DNA of 64,000 nt from Bacillota bacterium (GTDB lineage: Bacteria; Bacillota; DTU025), in NCBI GenBank assembly GCA_050951805.1, contig JBMNJT010000007.1:1-64000 (forward strand). Direction: 5' to 3'. Within the stretch, counting starts at the first letter, position 1, and each line of letters starts with the position of its first letter. The position numbers were made by a program, and so were the translations under genes. The notes beneath the pieces were generated by a model that was not told the DNA's origin, searched no databases, and worked only from the letters and a program-made list of their open reading frames with translations. Of the stretch, positions 21,996 to 36,148 are shown piece by piece.

Positions 21996-24087
21996 GTTCG
22001 CCCGGCATGTTTGTTGAGCCGATGGACTGAAAGAAGTCCTGTCACCTAACCAGCGGGAAGACAACCCCAAGGCAAGGGCGTCGCTGGTAACGGCGGGGTC
22101 TGAAGGAAGCTTTAAGGGGGAACACGGAACGTAGCGAAAGCGAACCGAAGTTGGCCTGTCAGGTGGGTAACCTTGCGAAGTATGGGAAAGCCCGAAAGCT
22201 GGATAACCTGGGGGGTTTTGACGGACGGGTTCGTGTTCAGGCAGACAAACTTAACCGGGGAAGCCCTGCATCATCCAGATAGCTGGTAAGCCCAAACAAG
22301 CGGAGACGCAAGGATGGGAATATGTGGTGTGGGGTGGCAGATGAGTCCGTAGTAGTTATGAACCCTCAGCCCATGAAAGCTGGCAACAGACCGGAGGATA
22401 AAACTGAGGGGACAGCGGCCGGGAGCTGCTGGGCTGCATAGGCCAAAAGCCTATGCAGTTGCGAAGGGACGAAGGCAAACCAAAGCGTGCAACCTAGTTA
22501 CAGGCAAGCATGGGAGAGAGATAACAGAGGCTGAAATGCCGATGGGAACGGGGGAGCCGGGGGCGACGAGTCTGCTGGTCCCTGCGCCCGCTCAGCAGAG
22601 TATCAAAGTTTCGCGGGGTAGATTGCCTTAGAGCTAGAGACGCCTCGCAGGCCTTGGGAAGAAACTGCAACCATGCAAGCTTGATGGCCAAGGAAGCACG
22701 GCGAGATGAAGGAGCTAATTGATGAAACACTACAGCTTGATCGATAAGGTTTACCGGATGGATAACCTTAGAGCTGCATACAGGGCCGTCAGGGCCAACA
22801 ACGGGGCTCCCGGGATAGACGGTGAGACCGTGGACGCCTTCGGCGAGAACCTGGAAGCCAGGCTGGCAGAGATTTATCAGGAGCTCAGATCAGGATCTTA
22901 CGAACCAAGTCCGGTGCGGCGGGTAGAGATACCGAAGCCAGACGGAAGCAAAAGGCCTCTTGGCATACCCACCGTTGGCGACAGAGTAGTGCAGCAAGCG
23001 CTGCTCAATGTGGTTCAGCCAATCTTCGACCCCGAATTCCATCCATCGAGCTATGGGTACCGACCCGGGCGATCCTGTCATCAAGCAGTGGCAAAGGCAG
23101 AGAGGTTCATTAATCGCTACGGTCTCAAGCACGTAGTGGACATGGACTTGTCAAAATGCTTTGACCGACTCGATCATGACCTGATCATTGAGTCTGTGAA
23201 CCGAAAGGTCAGCGACGGAAGCATACTTAAGCTGATCCGGAAGTTCCTTGAAGCAGGAGTCATGAAAGACGGGGCCTGGGAGGAAACAACCATAGGCAGT
23301 CCGCAAGGCGGAGTAATATCGCCTCTTCTTGCCAATATCTATCTTGACTACTTTGATCAAAAGATGAAGTCAAAGGACATCAGGATAGTGAGGTACGCTG
23401 ACGATATACTCATCTTTGCGCGGACAAGGCGACAGGCGGAAAAGTTCTTGGAGATAGCGTGCGAGATCCTTGAGGGCGAGTTAAAGCTCGTTGTGAACAG
23501 GGATAAAACGCACATAACCAGCGTCTATAAGGGAGTGCCCTACCTTGGGTTTGTCATATACCCTAAGGTAGTAAGCATACACCCCAAGAAGCTGGCGAAG
23601 TTCAAGGACGCCGTCCGCAAGCTGACTCCCCGCAATCATGGGATGAGTGTTGAGCAGATGGTGAAGCGACTGAACCGATTCCTTCGTGGATGGATCAACT
23701 ACTTTCGAATTGCGAACTGCAAGACGATAGTAGCCAGCCTGATGGGGTGGATAAGGCGGCGTCTGAGGATGAAGCAGATGAGGGAGTGGAAGAGCTGGAG
23801 GGGCCTGCATAAAGCACTTCGAAGGCGAGGCTACTCAGGCGAATTCCTAAAGATATCCATGAGACGATGGAGGAACTCGGCAAGTCCTCTGGTCAACATG
23901 GCGCTTCCTCAGGCTTGGTTCAGTGAGATAGGACTGATTGACCTCACGAAGTATGAGGTCGGCGTCTTGCATCTCTTCTATGAAGCGAAGTGACTAAGGT
24001 TTGCCAGGAGCCGTGTACGGGGCCCGTACGCACGGTTCTGTGAGAGGGATGACGCCAGGCTGATTACCTGGCGCCACCCTACTCGAT
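21996..24087 (+). mobile_element. group II intron, class C-like, full length (copy 1, 2092 nt)
   Basis: 5' GTTCGCCCGGCATG; D5 GAGCCGTGTACGGGGCCCGTACGCACGGTTC (24008-24038); D6 with bulged A ending CTCGAT; RT ORF in D4; boundaries defined by three copies. Confidence 0.95.
22719..23993 (+). CDS. ltrA: group II intron reverse transcriptase/maturase, no endonuclease domain
   Basis: GAPGIDG (RT0), RPLGIPTVGDRVVQ, GSPQGGVISPLLANIYL, YADD, thumb/X domain RGWINYF. Confidence 0.96.
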   Translation: MMKHYSLIDKVYRMDNLRAAYRAVRANNGAPGIDGETVDAFGENLEARLAEIYQELRSGSYEPSPVRRVEIPKPDGSKRPLGIPTVGDRVVQQALLNVVQPIFDPEFHPSSYGYRPGRSCHQAVAKAERFINRYGLKHVVDMDLSKCFDRLDHDLIIESVNRKVSDGSILKLIRKFLEAGVMKDGAWEETTIGSPQGGVISPLLANIYLDYFDQKMKSKDIRIVRYADDILIFARTRRQAEKFLEIACEILEGELKLVVNRDKTHITSVYKGVPYLGFVIYPKVVSIHPKKLAKFKDAVRKLTPRNHGMSVEQMVKRLNRFLRGWINYFRIANCKTIVASLMGWIRRRLRMKQMREWKSWRGLHKALRRRGYSGEFLKISMRRWRNSASPLVNMALPQAWFSEIGLIDLTKYEVGVLHLFYEAK

Positions 24088-24142
24088 AGTAGCCGGCATC
24101 ATTCTGCTGTTCTCAACATTTACGGATTAGGCGGACGTTAAG

Positions 24143-25726
24143 CTAGAAATCGCGGCCCTCTCCCATAACGAGAGCCCTGTAGGCAACCTCTGTCTTTTCC
24201 TGATAGCTTCCACTGCGATCCAAGGCATATGCACGCCCCATCGCCGTTACCACTTCTACATTCATCCCTGACGGGATCTTTGCCTCAAGAATCTCTAGTA
24301 GATCAGCAGCACCCTGTGGCGGACTGCTTCGACCATCAAGGATCAGATGAAGCCAAGCCCGTCCAATTCCTTTTTCCGCTGCTGCTCTGAGCACTGCAAT
24401 CCCCTCGTCCATATTCCCGTGAGAGCTCCGTTCCGACAGCATAGCTATTACATGAATATCGCCGCCATGGCTCCGCGCCGCTTCAAAGCCGTAATTGACT
24501 GCCTCATTCTCTTTGAGCCCTCCAGCGCCAACAGCCTGCGAAATCCGGAGTTCGTCTTGGGGAACAACCCGCCCGGCGCCGAGAGTTAGATGCCCGGTCT
24601 CCGAATTGCCTGACCTTCCCTTTGGCAAACCAACGGCCATCCCAGCCGCAGCCAGAGTCATATATGGACATTCCTTCCTCATTCTGCTCATACACGGCGT
24701 GTTGGCAACTGCAATCGGGTTGATGGTTGAATCATCTATGCCAACTCCCCATCCATCCAAAATAACCAATACCAGTCGATCATAAGTTCCCTCATGGACG
24801 GCGCGGCACTTGCCGGTCATCTCCTCGGGCACAGGTACGCCCATCATGCTCAACAGCGTGGGCGCAACATCTGCAAGGGTGGCATCCTCCGCCGCCCTCA
24901 GTTGCACAGACGGCCCTCCGGTCGCCAACACCAAGCCGAACGGCACACGACTACATGTATGGCTAAGGTTGTGGCTCCCATCTTCATTCACAAACCTCTC
25001 GAGCAGCCCATGATCTGCAGTTACAGCAACTGCATAACCATGTTGAGCCGCAGCTAGGCATATGGTGCTGAGCGCTTGATCTACCGCTTCAGCACAGAGC
25101 ACATTAGCATTCCAATCATCCAGATGCCCAATGATGTCCCCCGCCGCTAGGTTCACAAGGATGAAGTGCCTGCTATAACCACTGGCGTTCGCAGCAGCCA
25201 TCGAGCGCTCAGCTTCGAGGGCAACTTCCACCGTGCTCGTAGCCGGTTTCGAGACAAATTCTGATGAGTGGGGACTTGGCACAGTAATCCACTCTTCATT
25301 GGCATACGGTGCAACGCGCCTGCCATTGAAAAAGAACGTAACATGCGCCGCCTTCTCCGACTCGGCAATCCGCGTCTGCGCCACGCCGGCCTGACTCAGC
25401 GCCTCACCCATGGTTCCTTCAGGACGAAGAGTCGGAAAGATTGTGGGCAACTCAGCAAATTTCTCATGATATTGCACCAACGGAACAACGCTCAGATCAG
25501 GCATGGGTTCCGTTTCGAATTGATCAAATAGCGGGTCAGCTAAGGCCTCTGTGAGCTGTCGTTCACGGTCCCCACGCCTGCAACAAAAGAATAGAGAATC
25601 GCCATTCTTTATCTTGCCCACAGGCTTGCCATCGACGACGCGAGTCAGTGGAGTCATCCAGTAATCCATTTCTCCCCGGCTGTAGCACTCTCTCAAAGCC
25701 TGCTGCAAAGAAGCTGTTGTCTGCAC
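24143..25726 (-). CDS. circularly permuted 2,3-bisphosphoglycerate-independent phosphoglycerate mutase-like protein (GpmI family)
   Basis: Canonical C-terminal motifs (AESEKAAHVTFFFNG, GDIIGH, TADHG, SHT, LADVAPT, EMTGK) come before canonical N-terminal motifs (LVILDGWG, GLP..GNSETGH..GAGR, LDGR, GRAYALDR). Confidence 0.9.
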   Translation of the reverse strand: MQTTASLQQALRECYSRGEMDYWMTPLTRVVDGKPVGKIKNGDSLFFCCRRGDRERQLTEALADPLFDQFETEPMPDLSVVPLVQYHEKFAELPTIFPTLRPEGTMGEALSQAGVAQTRIAESEKAAHVTFFFNGRRVAPYANEEWITVPSPHSSEFVSKPATSTVEVALEAERSMAAANASGYSRHFILVNLAAGDIIGHLDDWNANVLCAEAVDQALSTICLAAAQHGYAVAVTADHGLLERFVNEDGSHNLSHTCSRVPFGLVLATGGPSVQLRAAEDATLADVAPTLLSMMGVPVPEEMTGKCRAVHEGTYDRLVLVILDGWGVGIDDSTINPIAVANTPCMSRMRKECPYMTLAAAGMAVGLPKGRSGNSETGHLTLGAGRVVPQDELRISQAVGAGGLKENEAVNYGFEAARSHGGDIHVIAMLSERSSHGNMDEGIAVLRAAAEKGIGRAWLHLILDGRSSPPQGAADLLEILEAKIPSGMNVEVVTAMGRAYALDRSGSYQEKTEVAYRALVMGEGRDF

Positions 25727-25771: not shown

Positions 25772-26836
25772 TTATTTGGGGAAAACCAAGCCGTTCTGGA
25801 TAAACGCACGGGTGCGGTCGCCAGGCTCAAACCTCATTGAGGAATTCGTCTGGACCCTGAGAAGATCCTCGCCAATTCGAACCCGGTATTCGATGACATT
25901 TCCGAGGAATATCCTTACGTCCACTTCGCATTCGACCCCTTGTTCGGTCCCCAGGATGATATCCTCCGGCCTGATAGCGAGGATATAGTCTCCTTTGTTC
26001 ACCGATGATCCGTCAAGATCAAACTCCGCCCCGCCACGAAGGCGAATGTCGATGCCTTTTTCAGTCTTGCCAGTCACACTGCAGGGAACGAAGTTCATAG
26101 TCCCTATGAAGTCGGCAACGAACTTGTCCTTCGGCGTTTCATATATGTCATGAGGCGCACCCTCCTGCACTACTTTGCCGGAGTTCATTACGGCAACCCG
26201 GTCTGACATGGCCATTGCCTCAACCTGGTCATGAGTAACATACAAAATGGATATTCCCGTCTTGCGCTGAATGTCTTTGAGCTCAAAGCGCATCTGCTCT
26301 CGCAGTTTCGCATCGAGATTGGAAAGAGGCTCATCAAGCAGCATAACCCTTGGGTCGGTAGAAAGCGCTCTCCCCAATGCAACGCGTTGCTGCTGTCCAC
26401 CGGAGAGTTCCGATGGGAACCTTCTTTCCAAGCCCTCGAGTTCAAGTAGGTCTAGCAAGTAAGCCATTTTAGCATTGATCTCTTCTTTTGGCCTTTTCGC
26501 CAGCCGAAGGGGGTAGGACATGTTCTGTTCTACTGTCATATGCGGCCATACTGCGTAGTTTTGAAAGACCATTCCTATGCCCCGGCGCTCAGGCGGCACC
26601 ATCACGTTTTTCTCCGGCGAAGTTACCAACTGACCGCTTATGTGTATCTCGCCCTCAGTGGGCTGCTCCAACCCTGAAATGCACCGGAGTGTTGTCGTCT
26701 TCCCGCATCCAGAGGGCCCCAGAAGCGAGAAGAACTCGTTCTCATGAACTGTAAAGCTCACATCGTGAACTGCTGTAAACGTCCCAAACCGCTTGACTAG
26801 GTTTGAAACCTTGATTCGTTCTTCCACCCTTGCCAC
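25772..26836 (-). CDS. ABC transporter ATP-binding protein (FbpC/AfuC/PotA type, TOBE domain)
   Basis: GPSGCGKTT, LSGGQQQR, LLDEPLSNLDA, YVTHDQ. Confidence 0.94.
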   Translation of the reverse strand: MARVEERIKVSNLVKRFGTFTAVHDVSFTVHENEFFSLLGPSGCGKTTTLRCISGLEQPTEGEIHISGQLVTSPEKNVMVPPERRGIGMVFQNYAVWPHMTVEQNMSYPLRLAKRPKEEINAKMAYLLDLLELEGLERRFPSELSGGQQQRVALGRALSTDPRVMLLDEPLSNLDAKLREQMRFELKDIQRKTGISILYVTHDQVEAMAMSDRVAVMNSGKVVQEGAPHDIYETPKDKFVADFIGTMNFVPCSVTGKTEKGIDIRLRGGAEFDLDGSSVNKGDYILAIRPEDIILGTEQGVECEVDVRIFLGNVIEYRVRIGEDLLRVQTNSSMRFEPGDRTRAFIQNGLVFPK

Positions 26837-26849
26837 CTCCGCATACCGT

Positions 26850-28538
26850 TCACATACTGATTTCGCCTTTTGAAAGCTTCCGCACGATTGCGTTGCCAGC
26901 CAAGATCACAAGCAAAACAATCGTAGACAACGCCGCAGCTATCTGGGTGTACCCGGCATCTTGCATGTTGTATATAACCACTCCTATAGTCTCAGCGCCC
27001 TGTGACCACAGAAGAACGGACATGGTCAACTCCCTCAGAGCTGGCATGAAAACCAGGATCCACCCGGCTATGAGGCCAGGTTTGATCAACGGCATCACAA
27101 TGTCTTTCATTGTCTGAGTCCATCCTGCCCCGGAAACCCGCGCAGCTTCCTCAAGCGAAACATGCACCTGCTGAAGAGTCGCGTTGGTAGTGCGAATCGA
27201 AAATGGCATGTACCGCACTAGGTAAGCCGCAAGTATGACCCATATCGTGCCGTAAAGCATCACAGGGGGTCGCGACCAGGCCAAGATCATGGCAATTGCC
27301 ACCATAGTACATGGCACCGCGTAAGGTATGGTTCCTACGAAGTCGAGAGTCTTGGCTCCCTTGATCTTGGCCCGCACAGACATGTAAGATACCAAAGCTC
27401 CAACGGCCATGGTGATTGTGGCAGCAGAAACCGCCAGGAACAAGCTGTTCCTAAATGCCCTGGATGCCATGGGCAGATCCAAAATGTATTTGTAATGACT
27501 CGTAGTCATATTCGCAAGGTTCAGCGGTGCGCCCCAGTATTTGAGGAATGAAGTCAAAAGCATCGATATCAGCGGAACTACCCCTGCAAAAAGCGATACG
27601 AGGACAACGATGATAAGGACAGGGATCCGCCAACCGCCTAGACTCATTGTTTGAGGCCTGACGCTCTTGCCCGCAATCACTGTATACCTGCTTTGCCCAC
27701 GCTCCAGTCTCCTCTCGAGAATAAGGGGAATCCCAGATGTAATCGCCAGGATAACCGCCATCGCAGTCGCCAATGGCATATCCGGTATGGACAGAGCGGA
27801 GTATATCTTCGTAGTCAACACGAAGAACCGGGCCCTGAACCCAAGAAGAGCCGGAATTCCGAAGTTGGATATGCAGCCGACAAACGCAAGCAATGCGCTA
27901 GCTGTGATCGCAGGCGTGATCAGTGGCATAGTTACATCTATGAGAGTCCTAAACGGACCTGCGCCAGACATCCTCGCGGCTTCTTCTAAGCTCGTATCGA
28001 TCTTGCCAAGCGCCCCACTCACAGTTATGAAAACGACGGGAAACTGATATACAGCGAGCACTAATACTACCCCGGCAGCACTGTATATGTTCCACGGAGC
28101 AGATGTCGCGCCCGTAAGCGTCATATATAGCTTAGATACGTAACCTACTGGTCCAAAAAGCTGAGCCCACGCCATCGCACCAATGAACGGCGGTATGCCA
28201 TACGGCAGCAGGAGCAGCATCCTCAACCACGACTTGCCCGGGATATCTGTTCGGACAACGAGCATAGCCAGGATAGTGCCTACAGCCACACATATCAGAG
28301 TAGACAGAGACGAAACCCAGATGGAATTCCAAAAGGCTTTAAGATTGGCTGACTCAGAGAAGATTTTCACATAGTTTTCGAAAGTAAAACCCGCCTCAGA
28401 ACTGAAACTCTTAACTACAACAAGGGACAGAGGGTACACGATGACGACCAGGAAGAACAGCCCAATGATGGCCATGAACACATAGCGTACATCCATAGAT
28501 CGTCGTCCAACTGCTGTGTCCGTATTCAATCGAATCAT
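26850..28538 (-). CDS. ABC transporter permease, fused two-domain (FbpB/AfuB type)
   Basis: Two EAA motifs (SLEEAARMSGA, SLEEAARVSGA); start ATG 28538 or TTG 28529 after AGGAGG. Confidence 0.92.
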   Translation of the reverse strand: MIRLNTDTAVGRRSMDVRYVFMAIIGLFFLVVIVYPLSLVVVKSFSSEAGFTFENYVKIFSESANLKAFWNSIWVSSLSTLICVAVGTILAMLVVRTDIPGKSWLRMLLLLPYGIPPFIGAMAWAQLFGPVGYVSKLYMTLTGATSAPWNIYSAAGVVLVLAVYQFPVVFITVSGALGKIDTSLEEAARMSGAGPFRTLIDVTMPLITPAITASALLAFVGCISNFGIPALLGFRARFFVLTTKIYSALSIPDMPLATAMAVILAITSGIPLILERRLERGQSRYTVIAGKSVRPQTMSLGGWRIPVLIIVVLVSLFAGVVPLISMLLTSFLKYWGAPLNLANMTTSHYKYILDLPMASRAFRNSLFLAVSAATITMAVGALVSYMSVRAKIKGAKTLDFVGTIPYAVPCTMVAIAMILAWSRPPVMLYGTIWVILAAYLVRYMPFSIRTTNATLQQVHVSLEEAARVSGAGWTQTMKDIVMPLIKPGLIAGWILVFMPALRELTMSVLLWSQGAETIGVVIYNMQDAGYTQIAAALSTIVLLVILAGNAIVRKLSKGEISM

Positions 28539-28590
28539 CCCCCTCCTACAATGGGCTGGGGTACACTGCATACAGTAATGTACTCCCCAG

Positions 28591-29455
28591 ATCGAGTAGG
28601 GTGGCGCCAGGTAATCAGCCTGGCGTCATCCCTCTCACAGAACCGTGCGTACGGGCCCCGTACACGGCTCCTGGCAAACCTTAGTCACTTCGCTTCATAG
28701 AAGAGATGCAAGACGCCGACCTCATACTTCGTGAGGTCAATTCATCTCGCCGTGCTTCCTTGGCCATCAAGCTTGCATGGTTGCAGTTTCTTCCCAAGGC
28801 CTGCGAGGCGTCTCTAGCTCTAAGGCAATCTACCCCGCGAAACTTTGATACTCTGCTGAGCGGGCGCAGGGACCAGCAGACTCGTCGCCCCCGGCTCCCC
28901 CGTTCCCATCGGCATTTCAGCCTCTGTTATCTCTCTCCCATGCTTGCCTGTAACTAGGTTGCACGCTTTGGTTTGCCTTCGTCCCTTCGCAACTGCATAG
29001 GCTTTTGGCCTATGCAGCCCAGCAGCTCCCGGCCGCTGTCCCCTCAGTTTTATCCTCCGGTCTGTTGCCAGCTTTCATGGGCTGAGGGTTCATAACTACT
29101 ACGGACTCATCTGCCACCCCACACCACATATTCCCATCCTTGCGTCTCCGCTTGTTTGGGCTTACCAGCTATCTGGATGATGCAGGGCTTCCCCGGTTAA
29201 GTTTGTCTGCCTGAACACGAACCCGTCCGTCAAAACCCCCCAGGTTATCCAGCTTTCGGGCTTTCCCATACTTCGCAAGGTTACCCACCTGACAGGCCAA
29301 CTTCGGTTCGCTTTCGCTACGTTCCGTGTTCCCCCTTAAAGCTTCCTTCAGACCCCGCCGTTACCAGCGACGCCCTTGCCTTGGGGTTGTCTTCCCGCTG
29401 GTTAGGTGACAGGACTTCTTTCAGTCCATCGGCTCAACAAACATGCCGGGCGAAC
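28591..29455 (-). mobile_element. ORF-less group II intron derivative (copy 3, 865 nt)
   Basis: Same 5' end, D1-D3, D5 and D6 as copy 1, with a 1227 nt deletion (copy 1 positions 22711-23937) removing the RBS, start and most of the RT ORF; junction at about 28740/28741. Confidence 0.92.
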
Positions 29456-31547
29456 ATCGAGTAGGGTGGCGCCAGGTAATCAGCCTGGCGTCATCCCTCT
29501 CACAGAACCGTGCGTACGGGCCCCGTACACGGCTCCTGGCAAACCTTAGTCACTTCGCTTCATAGAAGAGATGCAAGACGCCGACCTCATACTTCGTGAG
29601 GTCAATCAGTCCTATCTCACTGAACCAAGCCTGAGGAAGCGCCATGTTGACCAGAGGACTTGCCGAGTTCCTCCATCGTCTCATGGATATCTTCAGGAAT
29701 TCGCCTGAGTAGCCTCGCCTTCGAAGTGCTTTATGCAGGCCCCTCCAGCTCTTCCACTCCCTCATCTGCTTCATCCTCAGACGCCGCCTTATCCACCCCA
29801 TCAGGCTGGCTACTATCGTCTTGCAGTTCGCAATTCGAAAGTAGTTGATCCATCCACGAAGGAATCGGTTCAGTCGCTTCACCATCTGCTCAACACTCAT
29901 CCCATGATTGCGGGGAGTCAGCTTGCGGACGGCGTCCTTGAACTTCGCCAGCTTCTTGGGGTGTATGCTTACTACCTTAGGGTATATGACAAACCCAAGG
30001 TAGGGCACTCCCTTATAGACGCTGGTTATGTGCGTTTTATCCCTGTTCACAACGAGCTTTAACTCGCCCTCAAGGATCTCGCACGCTATCTCCAAGAACT
30101 TTTCCGCCTGTCGCCTTGTCCGCGCAAAGATGAGTATATCGTCAGCGTACCTCACTATCCTGATGTCCTTTGACTTCATCTTTTGATCAAAGTAGTCAAG
30201 ATAGATGTTGGCAAGAAGAGGCGATATTACTCCGCCTTGCGGACTGCCTATGGTTGTTTCCTCCCAGGCCCCGTCTTTCATGACTCCTGCTTCAAGGAAC
30301 TTCCGGATCAGCTTAAGTATGCTTCCGTCGCTGACCTTTCGGTTCACAGACTCAATGATCAGGTCATGATCGAGTCGGTCAAAGCATTTTGACAAGTCCA
30401 TGTCCACTACGTGCTTGAGACCGTAGCGATTAATGAACCTCTCTGCCTTTGCCACTGCTTGATGACAGGATCGCCCGGGTCGGTACCCATAGCTCGATGG
30501 ATGGAATTCGGGGTCGAAGATTGGCTGAACCACATTGAGCAGCGCTTGCTGCACTACTCTGTCGCCAACGGTGGGTATGCCAAGAGGCCTTTTGCTTCCG
30601 TCTGGCTTCGGTATCTCTACCCGCCGCACCGGACTTGGTTCGTAAGATCCTGATCTGAGCTCCTGATAAATCTCTGCCAGCCTGGCTTCCAGGTTCTCGC
30701 CGAAGGCGTCCACGGTCTCACCGTCTATCCCGGGAGCCCCGTTGTTGGCCCTTACGGCCCTGTATGCAGCTCTAAGGTTATCCATCCGGTAAACCTTATC
30801 GATCAAGCTGTAGTGTTTCATCAATTAGCTCCTTCATCTCGCCGTGCTTCCTTGGCCATCAAGCTTGCATGGTTGCAGTTTCTTCCCAAGGCTTGCGAGG
30901 CGTCTCTAGCTCTAAGGCAATCTACCCCGCGAAACTTTGATACTCTGCTGAGCGGGCGCAGGGACCAGCAGACTCGTCGCCCCCGGCTCCCCCGTTCCCA
31001 TCGGCATTTCAGCCTCTGTTATCTCTCTCCCATGCTTGCCTGTAACTAGGTTGCACGCTTTGGTTTGCCTTCGTCCCTTCGCAACTGCATAGGCTTTTGG
31101 CCAATGCAGCCCAGCAGCTCCCGGCCGCTGTCCCCTCAGTTTTATCCTCCGGTCTGTTGCCAGCTTTCATGGGCTGAGGGTTCATAACTACTACGGACTC
31201 ATCTGCCACCCCACACCACATATTCCCATCCTTGCGTCTCCGCTTGTTTGGGCTTACCAGCTATCTGGATGATGCAGGGCTTCCCCGGTTAAGTTTGTCT
31301 GCCTGAACACGAACCCGTCCGTCAAAACCCCCCAGGTTATCCAGCTTTCGGGCTTTCCCATACTTCGCAAGGTTACCCACCTGACAGGCCAACTTCGGTT
31401 CGCTTTCGCTACGTTCCGTGTTCCCCCTTAAAGCTTCCTTCAGACCCCGCCGTTACCAGCGACGCCCTTGCCTTGGGGTTGTCTTCCCGCTGGTTAGGTG
31501 ACAGGACTTCTTTCAGTCCATCGGCTCAACAAACATGCCGGGCGAAC
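29456..31547 (-). mobile_element. group II intron, class C-like, full length (copy 2, 2092 nt)
   Basis: Near-identical reverse complement of 21996-24087; its 3' end directly abuts the 5' end of copy 3. Confidence 0.95.
29550..30824 (-). CDS. ltrA: group II intron reverse transcriptase/maturase
   Basis: Protein identical to 22719..23993. Confidence 0.96.
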   Translation of the reverse strand: MMKHYSLIDKVYRMDNLRAAYRAVRANNGAPGIDGETVDAFGENLEARLAEIYQELRSGSYEPSPVRRVEIPKPDGSKRPLGIPTVGDRVVQQALLNVVQPIFDPEFHPSSYGYRPGRSCHQAVAKAERFINRYGLKHVVDMDLSKCFDRLDHDLIIESVNRKVSDGSILKLIRKFLEAGVMKDGAWEETTIGSPQGGVISPLLANIYLDYFDQKMKSKDIRIVRYADDILIFARTRRQAEKFLEIACEILEGELKLVVNRDKTHITSVYKGVPYLGFVIYPKVVSIHPKKLAKFKDAVRKLTPRNHGMSVEQMVKRLNRFLRGWINYFRIANCKTIVASLMGWIRRRLRMKQMREWKSWRGLHKALRRRGYSGEFLKISMRRWRNSASPLVNMALPQAWFSEIGLIDLTKYEVGVLHLFYEAK

Positions 31548-31608: not shown

Positions 31609-32589
31609 CTATTTGAACATTATTTTCTCGAAGGTCTCCCTTATAGCAGACGCGTTATCAGCCGCCCATTGGAATGGAACGGGCATCATCTTTATTTTAT
31701 CTGCCGTAGGCATTCCCTTCGGAGGAGCTACATCTGGCCTCACTGGTATCACACCATCATTGACCAATAGCTCCTGCCCCTTCTTCGAGAGAGTGAAGTC
31801 TACAAATGCCTTGGAGGCCTCAAGATTCTTTGACCCAGCAACTATCGCTACCGGACTCGGAATTGAGACCGCACCGTCGGCAGGCCAGACAAAATCAACC
31901 GGCGCTCCCGACTTCTGAAGGTCATAAATCATGTAGTCCAGCACCATGCAGGCTGCAAATTCGCCAGCAGCCAAACCTCTCGAAACATCTGAATTGCCCC
32001 TGAGAACCTGTATTCCAGATTTTCGCGCTTTCTCGTACCAGCTCCAACCTTTGTCTCTTTGAACAAAAGCCGCTGCAACAGTGAAGTTGGAACCAGAATA
32101 GAGGGGGTCCGCCATTGCGGCGCGAGAACCAAACCCGAGCAAGTCATCCCAAGTCTTTGGCTCGGATCCTTTCTTGACTAAATTGGTGTTTATTCCAATT
32201 ACCATGTTAATCATGCGAGCGCCTGTAAAGTATCCGTCAGGGTCCTTGATTGCTGAAGGAATGCGGGCGGCTTCCGGCGATTTGTACGGATATAGCAAGC
32301 CCTTGTCCTTGAATGCGTAGTAGCTTGCAGCATCAGCCAGCCATATTACGTCGGCCCTTATACCGCCAGCATCAGCCTCAGCCCATATCTTGTTGACCAC
32401 ATCAGTGCTTCCAGCTCGAAAAACTTCCACCTTGATCCCTTTATTCGCCTTCATGAATTGGTCTGCGAAGTTCGTAGCGAGTTCCAGTGGAACAGACGTG
32501 TAAAGCAGGACCTTCGACTCAGCAAATACACCAGTAGAGATCGACAGCAACAATACCAAAGCCAGGACTATTACACTGCCCCTTTTCAT
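31609..32589 (-). CDS. ABC transporter substrate-binding protein (AfuA/FbpA/PgtC-like)
   Basis: Signal peptide MKRGSVIVLALVLLLSISTGVFA; LLYTS, RAGS, ADVIW, DPLYSGS, AFVDFTLSKKGQ; ATG at 32589 after GAGG. Confidence 0.88.
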   Translation of the reverse strand: MKRGSVIVLALVLLLSISTGVFAESKVLLYTSVPLELATNFADQFMKANKGIKVEVFRAGSTDVVNKIWAEADAGGIRADVIWLADAASYYAFKDKGLLYPYKSPEAARIPSAIKDPDGYFTGARMINMVIGINTNLVKKGSEPKTWDDLLGFGSRAAMADPLYSGSNFTVAAAFVQRDKGWSWYEKARKSGIQVLRGNSDVSRGLAAGEFAACMVLDYMIYDLQKSGAPVDFVWPADGAVSIPSPVAIVAGSKNLEASKAFVDFTLSKKGQELLVNDGVIPVRPDVAPPKGMPTADKIKMMPVPFQWAADNASAIRETFEKIMFK

Positions 32590-32666
32590 GTTCAACCCGC
32601 CTCTCTTTTGATTGGTGGTATACTTGGTTAACCCCCACTCGCGCAGGGGCACGACCAGCGAATCAA

Positions 32667-33998
32667 CTAGTCATGCAACTTGATCTTTCGAGCCACCTTT
32701 AGCACTTCTTCTTCTAGATCGATAGAAGCATCTGTAGGAATAGGCTCATTATCGATATACACGATCTCAAGCCCCTTACGTACCGCCCATTCAGTCACAA
32801 CATCTACTGCAGCAGCCTTGAGTTCAGAGACGATTGCATCAGGCTTCAACGTTTCAAAACGCGCCAGGTCCTCTCGGAGCAGCGGCCTGTTCGAAAGGTG
32901 CGAGCTAACTCCAACAACCTCACATCCATAAGTCTTCTCAAGATAAGCAGATATGGCATCTGTCATCACCGCAGGCGTAGTTAGAGTGAGGACTATTCTC
33001 TTACCGGTAATATCGCCAATCGGGCGAGGTCTGAAAATGGTCTTCACCACCGTGCATCCGGCGTTTATCTCGTGAATGGCTTCTACCATCTCGTCAATCT
33101 TAGCTTGGTCAACCATTGGAGACTCACACATTGTAAGAACAATTAAGTCGGAGGTAAGAATACGATAAGGCCCGAGGTAAGAGCGCATATACTCTACGGG
33201 TTGGTGAGCACCGATGACTAGTATGCGCGCATCCGTGTGCACCGAAGGTATAGATGAACCGCTGCCTTCGAATATGACTATGTCGGCGTCGATCTTTTCC
33301 GACAGTTCAGCACCTCTGTCCACATTTGAGACAAAAGTCTGTCCCGACATCCCGCCTCCACACCGTCGACAGCCGATGGTTGTAACCCTTGAGGTAAGCA
33401 GATCCTCGAAATGGTCAGACGATGCATGGCGCCCTTGTTTGCTAACGGACAACAAATACTCGGGCGTGATCTCAATCTCAGACGCGCTGAGCAGCTCAGG
33501 CTCTGCAGGACCACCCCGCCCCATGGTAACCACGACGGGGTTATACTTCTTCGCCAGCGTCCGCGCGACAAAACCGCCGACAGCAGTCTTTCCGATTCTC
33601 TTCCCGGTTCCTATGACCGAGATACTCGGCCTGCTTACGCGCGCCGCCTCTACAGGAGGAGTGAACTGGAAATCCGCGCCCCGGTAAGCGACACCCTTTG
33701 CAAGCACATTGCTGGCAATCTCAAACCGCTCCTTGTAGCCAACTACAGGCTCGTCGCTAAGATCAACAACCTCATCCGGATCGTATTTGTCTATAGCGGC
33801 TGCGATAGCATGGAGATAGTCATCCTCATGCACTACAGGAACTCCAAGTCTGGCAAGATCAGAATCAGAACCAATCTTCTCAGTGCCGCCAATGAAAACG
33901 GCAGCCAATATGTCGAGCTCCCCCTTGAGCACCTCTATGGCATCATGAGTTACCGCAGGGTAATGCTCACCGTCTGTAAGTACAATAGCTTTCTTCAT
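32667..33998 (-). CDS. cpgS: cyclic 2,3-diphosphoglycerate synthetase
   Basis: DGEHYP, FIGGTEK, DLSDEPV, GTGKRIGKTAV, MGRGGP, HASSDHFED, GCRRCGGG, EGSG, HLSNRPLLR, ELKAAAVDV, all matching the archaeal cDPGS family as recalled. Confidence 0.9.
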   Translation of the reverse strand: MKKAIVLTDGEHYPAVTHDAIEVLKGELDILAAVFIGGTEKIGSDSDLARLGVPVVHEDDYLHAIAAAIDKYDPDEVVDLSDEPVVGYKERFEIASNVLAKGVAYRGADFQFTPPVEAARVSRPSISVIGTGKRIGKTAVGGFVARTLAKKYNPVVVTMGRGGPAEPELLSASEIEITPEYLLSVSKQGRHASSDHFEDLLTSRVTTIGCRRCGGGMSGQTFVSNVDRGAELSEKIDADIVIFEGSGSSIPSVHTDARILVIGAHQPVEYMRSYLGPYRILTSDLIVLTMCESPMVDQAKIDEMVEAIHEINAGCTVVKTIFRPRPIGDITGKRIVLTLTTPAVMTDAISAYLEKTYGCEVVGVSSHLSNRPLLREDLARFETLKPDAIVSELKAAAVDVVTEWAVRKGLEIVYIDNEPIPTDASIDLEEEVLKVARKIKLHD

Positions 33999-34019: not shown

Positions 34020-34808
34020 CTAGAATGAAGATGCATTGACAACCATCTCCTTTACCTTGCGCATGTTGGTGAGATCTACATATGTCTTGCACATATCCCC
34101 ACGTATCAGAGACTTTGCATATAGAATTGGTGTGGGCGATTCCGCGTAAGAAATGCGCTCATTGAGCATTGCCAATGCGCCAACTGATTGTCCAAGAAGG
34201 TCAGCTTCTAGGCTACCGAGGAAGACTGGCCGGAAGGTCTCGTCGCTCCTTTTCAGGACAATACCGTATTCATCACGGAGTATCCGAAATAGCGATCTTG
34301 ATAGATCGGCCTCTTCAATGCCGATAGCCACATCGGGGGAGATGAAAGTCGTCTCAATTAGCATTGGAATGCCATCGACTTTTTTCAAGCGTCTGATCCT
34401 TAACACTTCCGAGTCGTCTTCAATGGCCAAATACGCACTGACAAGATTGGAAGCCGCAACCCGGTCTATAGTAAGAACCTCCGCCCAGAATTCGTGTCCA
34501 AGAGCTCGAATTCTGGACGCAAGACGCATTTCGTCGGTGATATAGGTCGTCTCCTTGTACTCCATGGGCCATTGCGGAACTGAAACAAAAGTTCCCTTCC
34601 CTTGTACAGAATAGAGCAGGCCCTCATGAACTAATTCCGAAATGGCCTGCTTAGCTGTTGTAGTGCTTATGTCATAGGTTCCGCACAACTCACGTATTGA
34701 GGGAATGCGCGTCTCGGGCTCCCATTCGCCCGAGACGATCTTCTCCTTGAGCTCTTCTTTAAGCTGATAATACAGGGGAATAAAACTGTCCTTCTTAAGC
34801 ATTGGCAC
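34020..34808 (-). CDS. GntR family regulator, HutC subfamily (UTRA domain)
   Basis: PLYYQL...IPSIREL...VQGKGTFV HTH plus UTRA-type C-terminus; GGAGG precedes GTG 34808 / ATG 34802. Confidence 0.9.
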   Translation of the reverse strand: MPMLKKDSFIPLYYQLKEELKEKIVSGEWEPETRIPSIRELCGTYDISTTTAKQAISELVHEGLLYSVQGKGTFVSVPQWPMEYKETTYITDEMRLASRIRALGHEFWAEVLTIDRVAASNLVSAYLAIEDDSEVLRIRRLKKVDGIPMLIETTFISPDVAIGIEEADLSRSLFRILRDEYGIVLKRSDETFRPVFLGSLEADLLGQSVGALAMLNERISYAESPTPILYAKSLIRGDMCKTYVDLTNMRKVKEMVVNASSF

Positions 34809-34834
34809 GAAAGCCTCCATACCGTAATGGACCT

Positions 34835-34916: not shown

Positions 34917-34977
34917 CTTTCAAGACCTTCCATTTATACATCCATTAATTACAACAGCCATCTGCTGCCACGCCATG

Positions 34978-35108
34978 CCCATCTTCATTCACAAACCTCT
35001 CGAGCAGCCCATGATCTGCAGTTACAGCAGCTGCATAACCATGTTGAGCCGCCACTAGGTTCACAAGGATGAAGTGCCCGCTATAACCGCTGGCGTTCGC
35101 GGCAGCCA
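34978..35108 (-). repeat. decayed direct-repeat copy of part of the permuted mutase gene
   Basis: 34978-35052 matches 24977-25051 (1 mismatch); 35049-35108 matches 25141-25200 (4 mismatches); 93 nt internal deletion. Confidence 0.9.
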
Positions 35109-35370
35109 AGGTTCATTTACCGAGGAGATGTCTAAGGATATAGGCAATGTGGTTAGAAGCCGTAGAAGGCATCATGGTTAGAGTAAGAACCCTTGAATGG
35201 GTCCGGCAGATACTATTCGTCACCAAGTTGCCCATCGAAGGCGAACAGTCAAAATGTGCGTAGGCTAACCGATACGGGATGGTTCTGTGCAGAGCACGAT
35301 GGAGTGATGGGACTGTTCTTTGCTGGAAAACCTAATTGAAGTAGATCAGAACTAAAGGACGTGAACTCCG

Positions 35371-36062: not shown

Positions 36063-36148
36063 TGGTGCCGGAGGCGGGATTCGAACCCGCACGTCCTTGC
36101 GGACAGAGGATTTTAAGTCCCCTGCGTCTGCCTTTCCGCCACTCCGGC
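36063..36148 (-). tRNA. tRNA-Leu(TAA)
   Basis: GCCGGAGTGGCGGAAAGGCAGACGCAGGGGACTTAAAATCCTC...GGTTCGAATCCCGCCTCCGGCACCA; long variable arm, CCA encoded. Confidence 0.96.

Follow-up and report, generated by a model that had tools for sequence, protein, structure and literature searches.

A natural circular permutant of cofactor-independent phosphoglycerate mutase in a bacterial operon with a cyclic 2,3-diphosphoglycerate synthetase homolog

Two described systems bear most closely on the locus considered here. In the first, the GpmI-type cofactor-independent phosphoglycerate mutases (iPGMs), a transferase domain is inserted between the N-terminal and C-terminal parts of a phosphatase domain, and a passage of PMC5382265 describes two hinge peptides that link the two domains. 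The second is the pathway of thermophilic methanogens to cyclic 2,3-diphosphoglycerate (cDPG), which comprises 2-phosphoglycerate kinase (2PGK) and cDPG synthetase (CpgS or cDPGS). In a window of 64,000 nucleotides (positions 1 to 64,000 of contig JBMNJT010000007.1, assembly GCA_050951805.1, from a Bacillota bacterium of the lineage DTU025) we find a gene for an iPGM paralog whose two halves stand in swapped order. It is the last of six same-strand genes separated by short gaps, one of which encodes a CpgS homolog. The gene is a genuine, expressed and selectively maintained circular permutant of iPGM, and the permuted clade of which it is a member is large and old and has a changed substrate pocket; it is a natural, widespread and so far unnamed variant of a textbook glycolytic enzyme. 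Among the papers covered by our literature searches, none describes a permuted iPGM or an operon with cpgS from bacteria, and two papers on cDPGS make, in the passages searched, no mention of bacterial homologs or of a mutase.

Order of the halves and the junction

The open reading frame (ORF; all features are collected in Table 1) starts with a GTG codon, with an AGGAG motif 11 nt upstream and an in-frame TGA three codons upstream. Residues 5-308 of its product correspond to canonical iPGM residues ~212-516, and residues 314-525 to canonical residues 4-223. The first segment (A) comprises the second half of the transferase domain and the C-terminal part of the phosphatase domain, and carries R51, R54, K125, D197, H201, D238, H239 and H256. 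The second (B) comprises the N-terminal part of the phosphatase domain, with D324 and the nucleophile S375, and the first half of the transferase domain, with H436, R466, S467 (at the Asp154 position), R498 and R504. No segment is lost or duplicated: the unaligned parts are canonical residues ~1-3 and ~509-515 and 6-7 residues at the new termini, and only junction residues 308-313 are without a canonical counterpart.

This arrangement is seen in sequence comparisons with canonical iPGMs. All 11 distinct PDB sequences matched with phmmer are iPGMs, each aligned as two swapped stretches; for instance, query residues 318-525 and 9-308 align with residues 6-211 and 218-508 of 1ejj, and query residues 319-524 and 5-306 with residues 20-223 and 228-516 of 5vpu. 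A canonical gpmI lies elsewhere in the same genome (C4:40701-42212, 682 bits), and in BLASTP comparisons with its product query residues 8-307 match residues 219-508 (37% identity, E 3e-57) and query residues 314-524 match residues 4-212 (36% identity, E 9e-39). The family profile TIGR01307 is matched above its cut-off (391.2 versus 330.65 bits), again as two stretches in swapped order, and the stricter equivalog NF003897 falls below its cut-off (302.2 versus 862). In Pfam terms the protein consists of the Metalloenzyme and iPGM_N domains in two stretches each, the former (PF01676) with 150.4 bits against a cut-off of 24.3, which places it in the alkaline phosphatase superfamily. The domain order of GpmI, as seen in the canonical paralog of the same genome with iPGM_N (residues 85-298) nested inside the phosphatase domain, is not found in the permuted protein; instead its phosphatase domain is contiguous (~ residues 96-390) and its transferase domain is split across both ends. 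The new termini fall in a stretch of the canonical protein that is poorly conserved (the commonest residue occurs in 13-28% of sequences) and that carries occasional insertions.

A sequence-only reading of the locus had proposed a start near canonical GpmI residue 215, a run through the old C-terminus, a short linker and the old N-terminus, and an end just before the protein's own starting point. The swapped matches of the two halves to the host's own GpmI and to all 11 PDB iPGMs agree with this course throughout, with the start observed at ~212-218. The linker, CRAVHEGTYD at about 24808-24779 in that reading, lies where it had been placed, within the junction CRAVHEGTYDR. The intact 527-codon ORF and its near-complete two-piece alignment likewise uphold the claim of a frame from which nothing is missing or repeated, and Pfam agrees that the old termini lie in the phosphatase (Metalloenzyme) domain and the new ones inside the transferase (iPGM_N) domain.

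Several independent lines of evidence show that the junction is real. It is spanned by contigs from three RNA libraries, each of a different study (X15, 24102-25107; X16, 24545-25272; X17, 24453-24967) and by one DNA run (X11, 24059-25006), and the metagenome contig L104 is 99.4% identical across it; the linker thus has spanning support from contigs of four other runs and from L104. Against a same-genus ortholog of the permuted gene, the ratio of nonsynonymous to synonymous substitution rates (dN/dS) is 0.081. No leftover iPGM halves were found beside the gene in a read-through translation of its flanks, where the slight over-extension of the matches crosses stop codons. Truncation by the nearby group II intron was considered and rejected: the intron ends at 24089, 53 nt past the stop codon, and the ORF ends at the same place in contig L104, which lacks the intron.

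An AlphaFold2 model built on 25 permuted sequences has a mean predicted local distance difference test score (pLDDT) of 94.2 and a predicted template-modeling score of 0.89, with no weak segment; at the junction the pLDDT is 97 for residues 301-310 and 95 for residues 311-320. All 22 Foldseek matches at E <= 0.001 are iPGM chains. VIA-align superimposes model residues 3-310 on residues 212-510 of 1ejj (Z 21.4, root-mean-square deviation 5.5, 296 aligned) and residues 3-311 on residues 212-505 of 4nwj (Z 21.0, root-mean-square deviation 2.6, 294 aligned); both programs are sequential aligners, and the superposition covers the first half only (model 3-312 on iPGM 212-510). Alkaline phosphatases and sulfatases are matched by VIA-align at Z 10-11 over model residues 98-402.

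The permuted family and its substrate pocket

In a collection of 5.8 billion proteins, 117 of the 120 best relatives are collinear with the permuted protein over more than 420 residues, the other three being two fragments and one form with an insert; the permuted homologs that the earlier reading had marked for a search were thus found. When representatives at 50% identity were searched, 18 of the best 150 proved collinear; the remainder are swapped relative to it, that is, canonical. With one genome per species, five of the 80 returned loci are permuted, and these come from Anaerolinea, Ruminococcaceae, Clostridiales, Butyricicoccus and Omnitrophica. Database labels of the permuted members are inconsistent, ranging over iPGM, alkaline phosphatase family, sulfatase-like and hypothetical protein, and so they have probably been mis-annotated as glycolytic mutases.

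The spacing across the junction bears on how the permutation arose. From the last C-terminal motif to the first N-terminal motif there are 17-21 residues (median 18) in 35 of 36 permuted proteins, and the sum of the two tails in canonical proteins has a median of 19 (based on the 103 of 127 proteins that yielded both motifs). Given this agreement the junction represents the old tails fused to each other, which is what a model of tandem duplication followed by trimming predicts, and the family may have originated in this manner. No tandem-duplicate intermediate was seen among ten longer relatives, which is weak evidence.

Trees were built after re-ordering the halves of the permuted proteins. 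The main permuted clade (33 of 36 rows) forms one side of a branch with support 1.0, and it is recovered with a Shimodaira-Hasegawa-like approximate likelihood ratio (SH-aLRT) support of 99 with 23 rows and of 100 with 16 rows under a mixture model. Three permuted proteins with a canonical-like pocket (P0132, P0136 and P0160) lie outside this clade in free trees. A tree uniting all 26 permuted rows has a likelihood higher by 89.7 log units and is not rejected by the approximately unbiased test (p 0.98), and it is possible that the permutation had a single ancient origin.

The catalytic residues of iPGM, which we take to be Asp12, Ser62, Asp403, His407, Asp444, His445 and His462 in Bst numbering, are aligned in the comparison with 1ejj to D324, S375, D197, H201, D238, H239 and H256. 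Of the eight residues that presumably contact the substrate (His123, Arg153, Asp154, Arg185, Arg191, Arg261, Arg264 and Lys336) seven are present, as H436, R466, R498, R504, R51, R54 and K125, and the eighth, Asp154, is replaced by Ser467. The nucleophile, the metal ligands and the seven phosphoglycerate contacts are invariant in 25 permuted proteins. Position 154 is a serine in 85% of the main permuted clade, compared with an aspartate in 98% of 127 canonical proteins; the literature search found no paper on the role of Asp154.

Of the 118 columns conserved in at least 85% of the 127 canonical iPGMs, the main permuted clade (33 proteins in this comparison) keeps 72, relaxes 33 and switches 13 to another residue. 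Among the switches are Val122 to Ser (100%), Asp154 to Ser (85%), Glu231 to Tyr (85%), Asn259 to Cys and Asn447 to Leu, and eight of the 13 map to the transferase domain. Their net effect is the loss of two acidic side chains and the gain of three hydroxyl groups. These switches might create space for a more anionic substrate. The minor permuted group of P0132, P0136 and P0160 has the canonical residue at all 13 switched columns.

Several members of the family show further architectural variation. The 971-residue protein P0306 from Omnitrophota is a permuted iPGM fused to a 2PGK-like P-loop kinase domain; the latter scores 122 bits, below the family cut-off, and has 31% identity to a cpgS-linked kinase. 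In P0305 (935 residues) a permuted iPGM is fused to an ApgM-type mutase, and the 1220-residue product of L080:156-3815 combines a permuted iPGM with an unexplained N-terminal part of ~550 residues. A 581-residue ortholog (P0018, encoded at L103:9583-11328 in genome G004) has an insert of ~55-70 residues; it is located between query residues 266 and 284, where the phosphatase domain has a variable loop, and away from the junction. Another iPGM relative, P0258 (463 residues), contains the region equivalent to query residues 9-142 twice and lacks the N-terminal half; this could be a partial internal duplication or a gene-call artifact. Among deeper members of the permuted clade, the genes at L004, L006 and L007 adjoin one to five genes for NagD-type HAD hydrolases, together with LacI regulators and a PfkB kinase, and these neighbors point to a different pathway. 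At L004, from Anaerolinea, an ApgM-type mutase gene also adjoins the permuted gene.

The operon, its distribution and its proposed function

Table 1. Positions of the permuted gene, its parts, the other operon genes and the intron blocks within the window
Feature	Coordinates	Strand	Remarks
Circularly permuted iPGM paralog, 527 aa	24143..25726	-	Stop codon 24143-24145
Segment A, residues 1-306	24809..25726	-	~ canonical iPGM residues 212-508
Junction, residues 307-317 (CRAVHEGTYDR)	24776..24808	-	Old C-tail joined to old N-tail
Segment B, residues 318-527	24146..24775	-	~ canonical iPGM residues 6-213
GntR/UTRA (HutC/PhnR-like) regulator, operon gene 1	34020..34820	-	Pfam GntR + UTRA
CpgS/cDPGS homolog, 443 aa, operon gene 2	32667..33998	-	PDB matches
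Extracytoplasmic solute-binding protein (SBP), operon gene 3	31609..32652	-	Pfam SBP_bac_8/6/1/11
Fused two-domain ABC permease, operon gene 4	26850..28571	-	Pfam BPD_transp_1 twice
ABC transporter ATPase with TOBE domain, operon gene 5	25772..26836	-	Pfam
Inserted group II intron block, SBP-permease spacer	28592..31547	- (operon's strand)	Rfam
Second group II intron block	22009-24089	+ (opposite to permuted gene)	53 nt past its stop codon

Besides the permuted iPGM, the operon encodes a regulator, a CpgS homolog and a binding-protein-dependent ATP-binding cassette (ABC) importer. The CpgS homolog matches 8oru and 8ork with an E-value of 5.3e-139 over residues 2-435, and 9sxb with 9.8e-133; it keeps the contacts of the M. 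fervidus enzyme (P-loop K145/R146, T150, E45 and D208) and also matches the CpgS_N clusters of a protein atlas, and it has no Pfam or NCBIfam match. The solute-binding protein has a signal-peptide-like N-terminus, and its best solved relatives are the pyridoxal-5-phosphate-binding 6wce (1.5e-23) and 8x1a and 4r72, which were deposited as Fe3+-type proteins. For regulator and transporter alike the best family matches, though sub-threshold, are to the 2-aminoethylphosphonate system PhnR/PhnS2T2U2: the PhnS2, PhnU2 and PhnT2 cut-offs are all missed (126.2 versus 392.75 for the binding protein, 200.5 versus 593.25 for the permease and 357.9 versus 457.7 for the ATPase), and none of the regulator's NCBIfam matches (PhnR, HutC and PhnF) reaches its cut-off. 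A search for a terminator-like site beyond the end of the permuted gene found none.

Nine genomes, belonging to three families, have the same six genes in the same order, with identities of the permuted iPGM as low as 47%, and a second gene order, ABC-(GntR)-cpgS-permuted iPGM, is seen at L131, L167 and L169. Among 41 relatives, the permuted gene is present in nine and cpgS in nine, with both in seven and neither in 30; of the four cases with one gene, two (G002 and G009) are fragmented assemblies that have cpgS alone, one (G007) is a contig that ends inside the operon and one is a variant operon (L099 in G015), in which importer, regulator and permuted iPGM are kept and cpgS is absent. Of 201 genomes sampled evenly across the phylum, five have cpgS, all of them together with the permuted gene, and three more carry the permuted gene alone. 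A co-occurrence with cpgS, raised as a check by the sequence-only reading, is thus borne out by the conserved operon and by this sample; the genomes counted are related, and the counts are therefore not independent. All 11 carrier genomes checked have another mutase, either GpmI or ApgM. In 11 genomes with the permuted gene a search for 2PGK (NF003259) found none, with no match in ten and a 19.6-bit match in one, and none was found in the gene's own genome (G000). This genomic association of the permuted iPGM with cDPG metabolism is conserved, and it is potentially new.

When metagenomes were scanned with an alignment of CpgS, 80 loci were returned, of which 26 have 2PGK, 12 the permuted iPGM, none both and 42 neither. 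At the 26 kinase loci 2PGK mostly adjoins cpgS directly, usually with a metallophosphoesterase in addition. The 12 permuted loci include eight from a set of 12 in which CpgS identity is 58% or more, namely the eight on contigs that extend far enough; the others are L131, L167, L169 and L176, at which cpgS and the permuted gene are direct neighbors. Many of the 42 remaining loci are on short contigs, and some adjoin a coenzyme M gene, which points to methanogens. In the CpgS tree the sequences associated with the permuted gene group in one clade (23 rows, SH-aLRT 97) whose sister is a 2PGK-linked clade, with those of L131 and L176 elsewhere on long branches. The cpgS clusters are thus of two kinds, one with the kinase and biosynthetic in appearance, the other with an importer and the permuted iPGM.

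In a set of the kinase-type clusters (L120, L132, L139, L151, L152, L166, L177 and L181) cpgS is followed directly by 2PGK, with a metallophosphoesterase gene flanking. Several of these contigs also carry genes for the Rho termination factor and transaldolase, and are therefore bacterial. This is a putative complete gene pair for cDPG biosynthesis outside the archaea, at odds with a literature in which cDPG is exclusive to methanogens.

The host of the permuted gene is a spore-forming bacterium. The gene was detected in 14 DNA runs of six studies, possibly with the source of the present DNA among them, and in six RNA libraries of five studies, and the labels of these runs (bioreactor, landfill, sludge, activated sludge and anaerobic digester) denote places with methanogens. 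RNA contigs cover all the operon genes and cross the gene borders; they carry no information on transcript ends or expression levels. A rough proteome index, a hint only that was calculated from 38 ORFs of the window, suggests a moderate thermophile at ~51 C.

Two group II intron blocks lie in and beside the operon. The one in the spacer between the binding-protein and permease genes comprises a mini intron that has no ORF (28591-29442) and then a full intron with a reverse transcriptase/maturase ORF (29456-31534), and a terminator-like hairpin lies 5 nt before its empty site. The 99.4%-identical contig L104 is without both blocks, and both insertions are recent. The genome contains three identical full copies of such introns and at least five minis without a reverse transcriptase ORF. 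In one RNA contig, position 29455 is connected back to 28591, indicating a circle or a tandem arrangement, and in the RNA runs X15 and X17 an intron-free joint skips 28591-31547, which could be spliced RNA or come from an intron-free strain. Upstream of gntR, a 54-codon ORF (34945-35109, minus strand) is a mosaic relic of the permuted gene, in which residues ~176-196 are joined to ~225-250 and an 82-nt stretch is 96% identical to 24977-25058; it is probably a remnant of an old duplication or recombination. The whole cassette is situated in a variable interval (15275-36062) beside a tRNA-Leu(taa) gene (36063-36148, minus strand), flanked by the conserved backbone MazG-SLT-YabQ-DivIC-S1-Ppx and by an epimerase-MFS pair. 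In a relative of the same family (G004) this interval measures ~7.6 kb and is without the cassette, which is present on another contig, suggesting that the cassette is an accessory island.

With about even confidence, we propose that the operon is a self-contained accessory unit for the uptake and breakdown of cDPG or 2,3-diphosphoglycerate (2,3-DPG), with the permuted iPGM as the last enzyme; its gene content suggests that bacteria may take up and use cDPG. The binding-protein-dependent ABC system would import cDPG or 2,3-DPG, and the CpgS homolog would open the ring by the reverse reaction, cDPG + ADP + Pi -> 2,3-DPG + ATP. The permuted iPGM would then convert 2,3-DPG to a monophosphoglycerate that enters glycolysis, its serine and two-metal center acting as a phosphatase or phosphotransferase, and the GntR/UTRA protein would keep the operon repressed until the substrate is present. 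Extending this to the community, we suggest tentatively that bacteria living with methanogens scavenge cDPG, that CpgS is there an ATP-yielding catabolic opener and that the permuted clade has acquired a new activity on 2,3-DPG. The latter could be that of a specific phosphatase or of an energy-conserving transferase (2,3-DPG + glycerate -> two phosphoglycerates), and the Asp154 to Ser, Val122 to Ser and Glu231 to Tyr switches would make room for the second phosphate.

In favor of this proposal, the cDPGS of M. fervidus is described in a passage of a review (PMC1224877) as reversible and able to form ATP from ADP, Pi and cDPG. The second mutase in every carrier genome examined, along with the ApgM-type neighbor and fusion (L004 and P0305), indicates that the reaction is probably not the ordinary one. 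The name phosphoglycerate mutase given in the sequence-only reading holds as a statement of homology; the pocket changes, the operon and the second mutase make another reaction likely. The fusion in P0306 is an independent tie of the permuted clade to the chemistry of 2-phosphoglycerate (2PG) and 2,3-DPG.

Several points weigh against the proposal. The Methanothermobacter cDPGS appears, in a passage of the same paper (PMC1224877), to be irreversible, and a passage of PMC10690619 has cDPG reported only from thermophilic methanogens, and several of our run labels are not obviously hot. Three carrier genomes are without cpgS (G015, G073 and G188), deeper members of the clade adjoin genes for HAD hydrolases, LacI, PfkB or RapZ-type proteins instead, and the transporter parts fall far short of the curated cut-offs for all named families. 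The phosphoglycerate-binding arginines, the lysine and His123 are all kept, the catalytic role of Asp154 is assumed, and the permuted protein could be an ordinary mutase of 3-phosphoglycerate (3PG) and 2PG. A simple 2,3-DPG phosphatase combined with the kinase of P0306 would result in a futile cycle, which favors a mutase or phosphotransferase; a mutase or an intermolecular phosphotransferase would fit both the second-mutase and the fusion observations.

It is conceivable, though we consider it somewhat unlikely, that the operon works in the opposite direction and makes cDPG as a heat or osmotic protectant, with the permuted iPGM feeding CpgS and the importer retrieving leaked solute or precursor. 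The permuted iPGM would in that case supply 2PG or form 2,3-DPG itself in a reaction that needs no ATP; possible sources are 1,3-bisphosphoglycerate, or two phosphoglycerates of which one passes its phosphoryl group to the other. CpgS is a close homolog of a biosynthetic enzyme with its substrate-binding residues kept, the mutual exclusion of the permuted iPGM and 2PGK across cpgS loci could mean that 2PGK has been replaced, the P0306 fusion fits a route from 3PG through 2PG to 2,3-DPG, and the proteome index agrees with a thermophilic host. However, searches of all 11 carrier genomes found no 2PGK, and a new 2,3-DPG-forming chemistry must be assumed. Importers with a binding protein and HutC/PhnR-type regulators are typical of uptake and catabolic operons; this operon has both, and the variant without cpgS retains importer, regulator and permuted iPGM.

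We regard as unlikely a simpler explanation, in which the permutation is neutral and the protein is a normal 3PG/2PG mutase isozyme that links an imported phosphoglycerate-type compound to glycolysis. The conserved nucleophile and metal ligands, the seven of the eight presumed substrate contacts and the TIGR01307 match above its cut-off agree with it, and P0132, P0136 and P0160 show that the permuted topology is compatible with a canonical pocket. Set against these are the housekeeping GpmI or ApgM of all 11 carrier genomes and the 13 switched and 33 relaxed columns of the main clade; moreover, the fusion to ApgM in P0305 and the adjacency at L004 would be redundant, and 2,3-DPG would be left without a consuming enzyme in the operon.

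Quite improbable, in our view, is that the operon handles some other imported organophosphate or phosphonate unrelated to cDPG, to which both the CpgS homolog and the permuted iPGM have drifted. The sub-threshold matches to PhnR/PhnS2T2U2, the binding-protein relatives that bind pyridoxal phosphate or were deposited as iron-binding, and the several unrelated gene contexts of the permuted clade would be in keeping with this. Against it stand the full-length match of the CpgS homolog to the M. fervidus enzyme (E 5e-139) with all the listed 2,3-DPG/ADP contacts conserved, the conserved phosphoglycerate-binding residues of the iPGM and the independent fusion to a 2PGK-like kinase. Finally, there are mobile group II introns beside the gene and within the operon, and a relic of the same gene lies upstream of gntR, but an assembly artifact, chimera or decaying pseudogene can be dismissed as vanishingly improbable given the intact frame, the hundreds of collinear homologs from independent assemblies, the bridging of the junction in four other runs and contig L104, the low dN/dS and the confident structure model.

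Comparison with known systems

The permuted iPGM represents a natural experiment in the re-threading of a two-domain hinge enzyme, followed by a change of its pocket. With the operon, the import and use by bacteria of cDPG, a solute regarded as exclusive to hyperthermophilic methanogens, becomes a question that can be tested at the bench, and the bacterial 2PGK-cpgS clusters raise the further question of whether some bacteria make cDPG. If the operon is catabolic, methanogens and fermenters in digesters would be joined by a new cross-feeding link, and the operon would supply enzymes with which an extremolyte of commercial interest could be made or degraded.

With GpmI (TIGR01307; PF06415 + PF01676; 1EJJ, 1O98, 4NWJ) the permuted protein shares the two domains, the serine nucleophile, the two-metal site and the arginine, lysine and histidine contacts, as well as ~36-37% identity per half to the host's own GpmI and a fold match at Z 20-22. 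It differs in that its halves are swapped, its phosphatase domain is contiguous and its transferase domain split, and 13 conserved positions are switched; its gene belongs to an accessory operon, whereas GpmI is the housekeeping copy. The ApgM-type iPGMs and phosphopentomutases have the catalytic core in common with it, along with weak NCBIfam matches and a fold match (4n7t, Z 11.5), but they have another inserted cap domain and a core that is not permuted, and the presence of ApgM beside or fused to permuted iPGMs (L004 and P0305) suggests distinct roles for the two. The operon resembles the methanogen cDPG pathway in its second gene, a close full-length cDPG synthetase homolog with contacts kept, and differs from that pathway in its importer, repressor-type regulator and permuted iPGM, in the absence of 2PGK from the genome and in its spore-forming bacterial host. 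The 'ferric-type' organophosphate-binding proteins (6WCE; PhnS/PhnS2) are the best relatives of the operon's binding protein, and a fused permease and a TOBE-containing ATPase are shared features of these systems, but the operon protein scores far below the cut-offs of those families.

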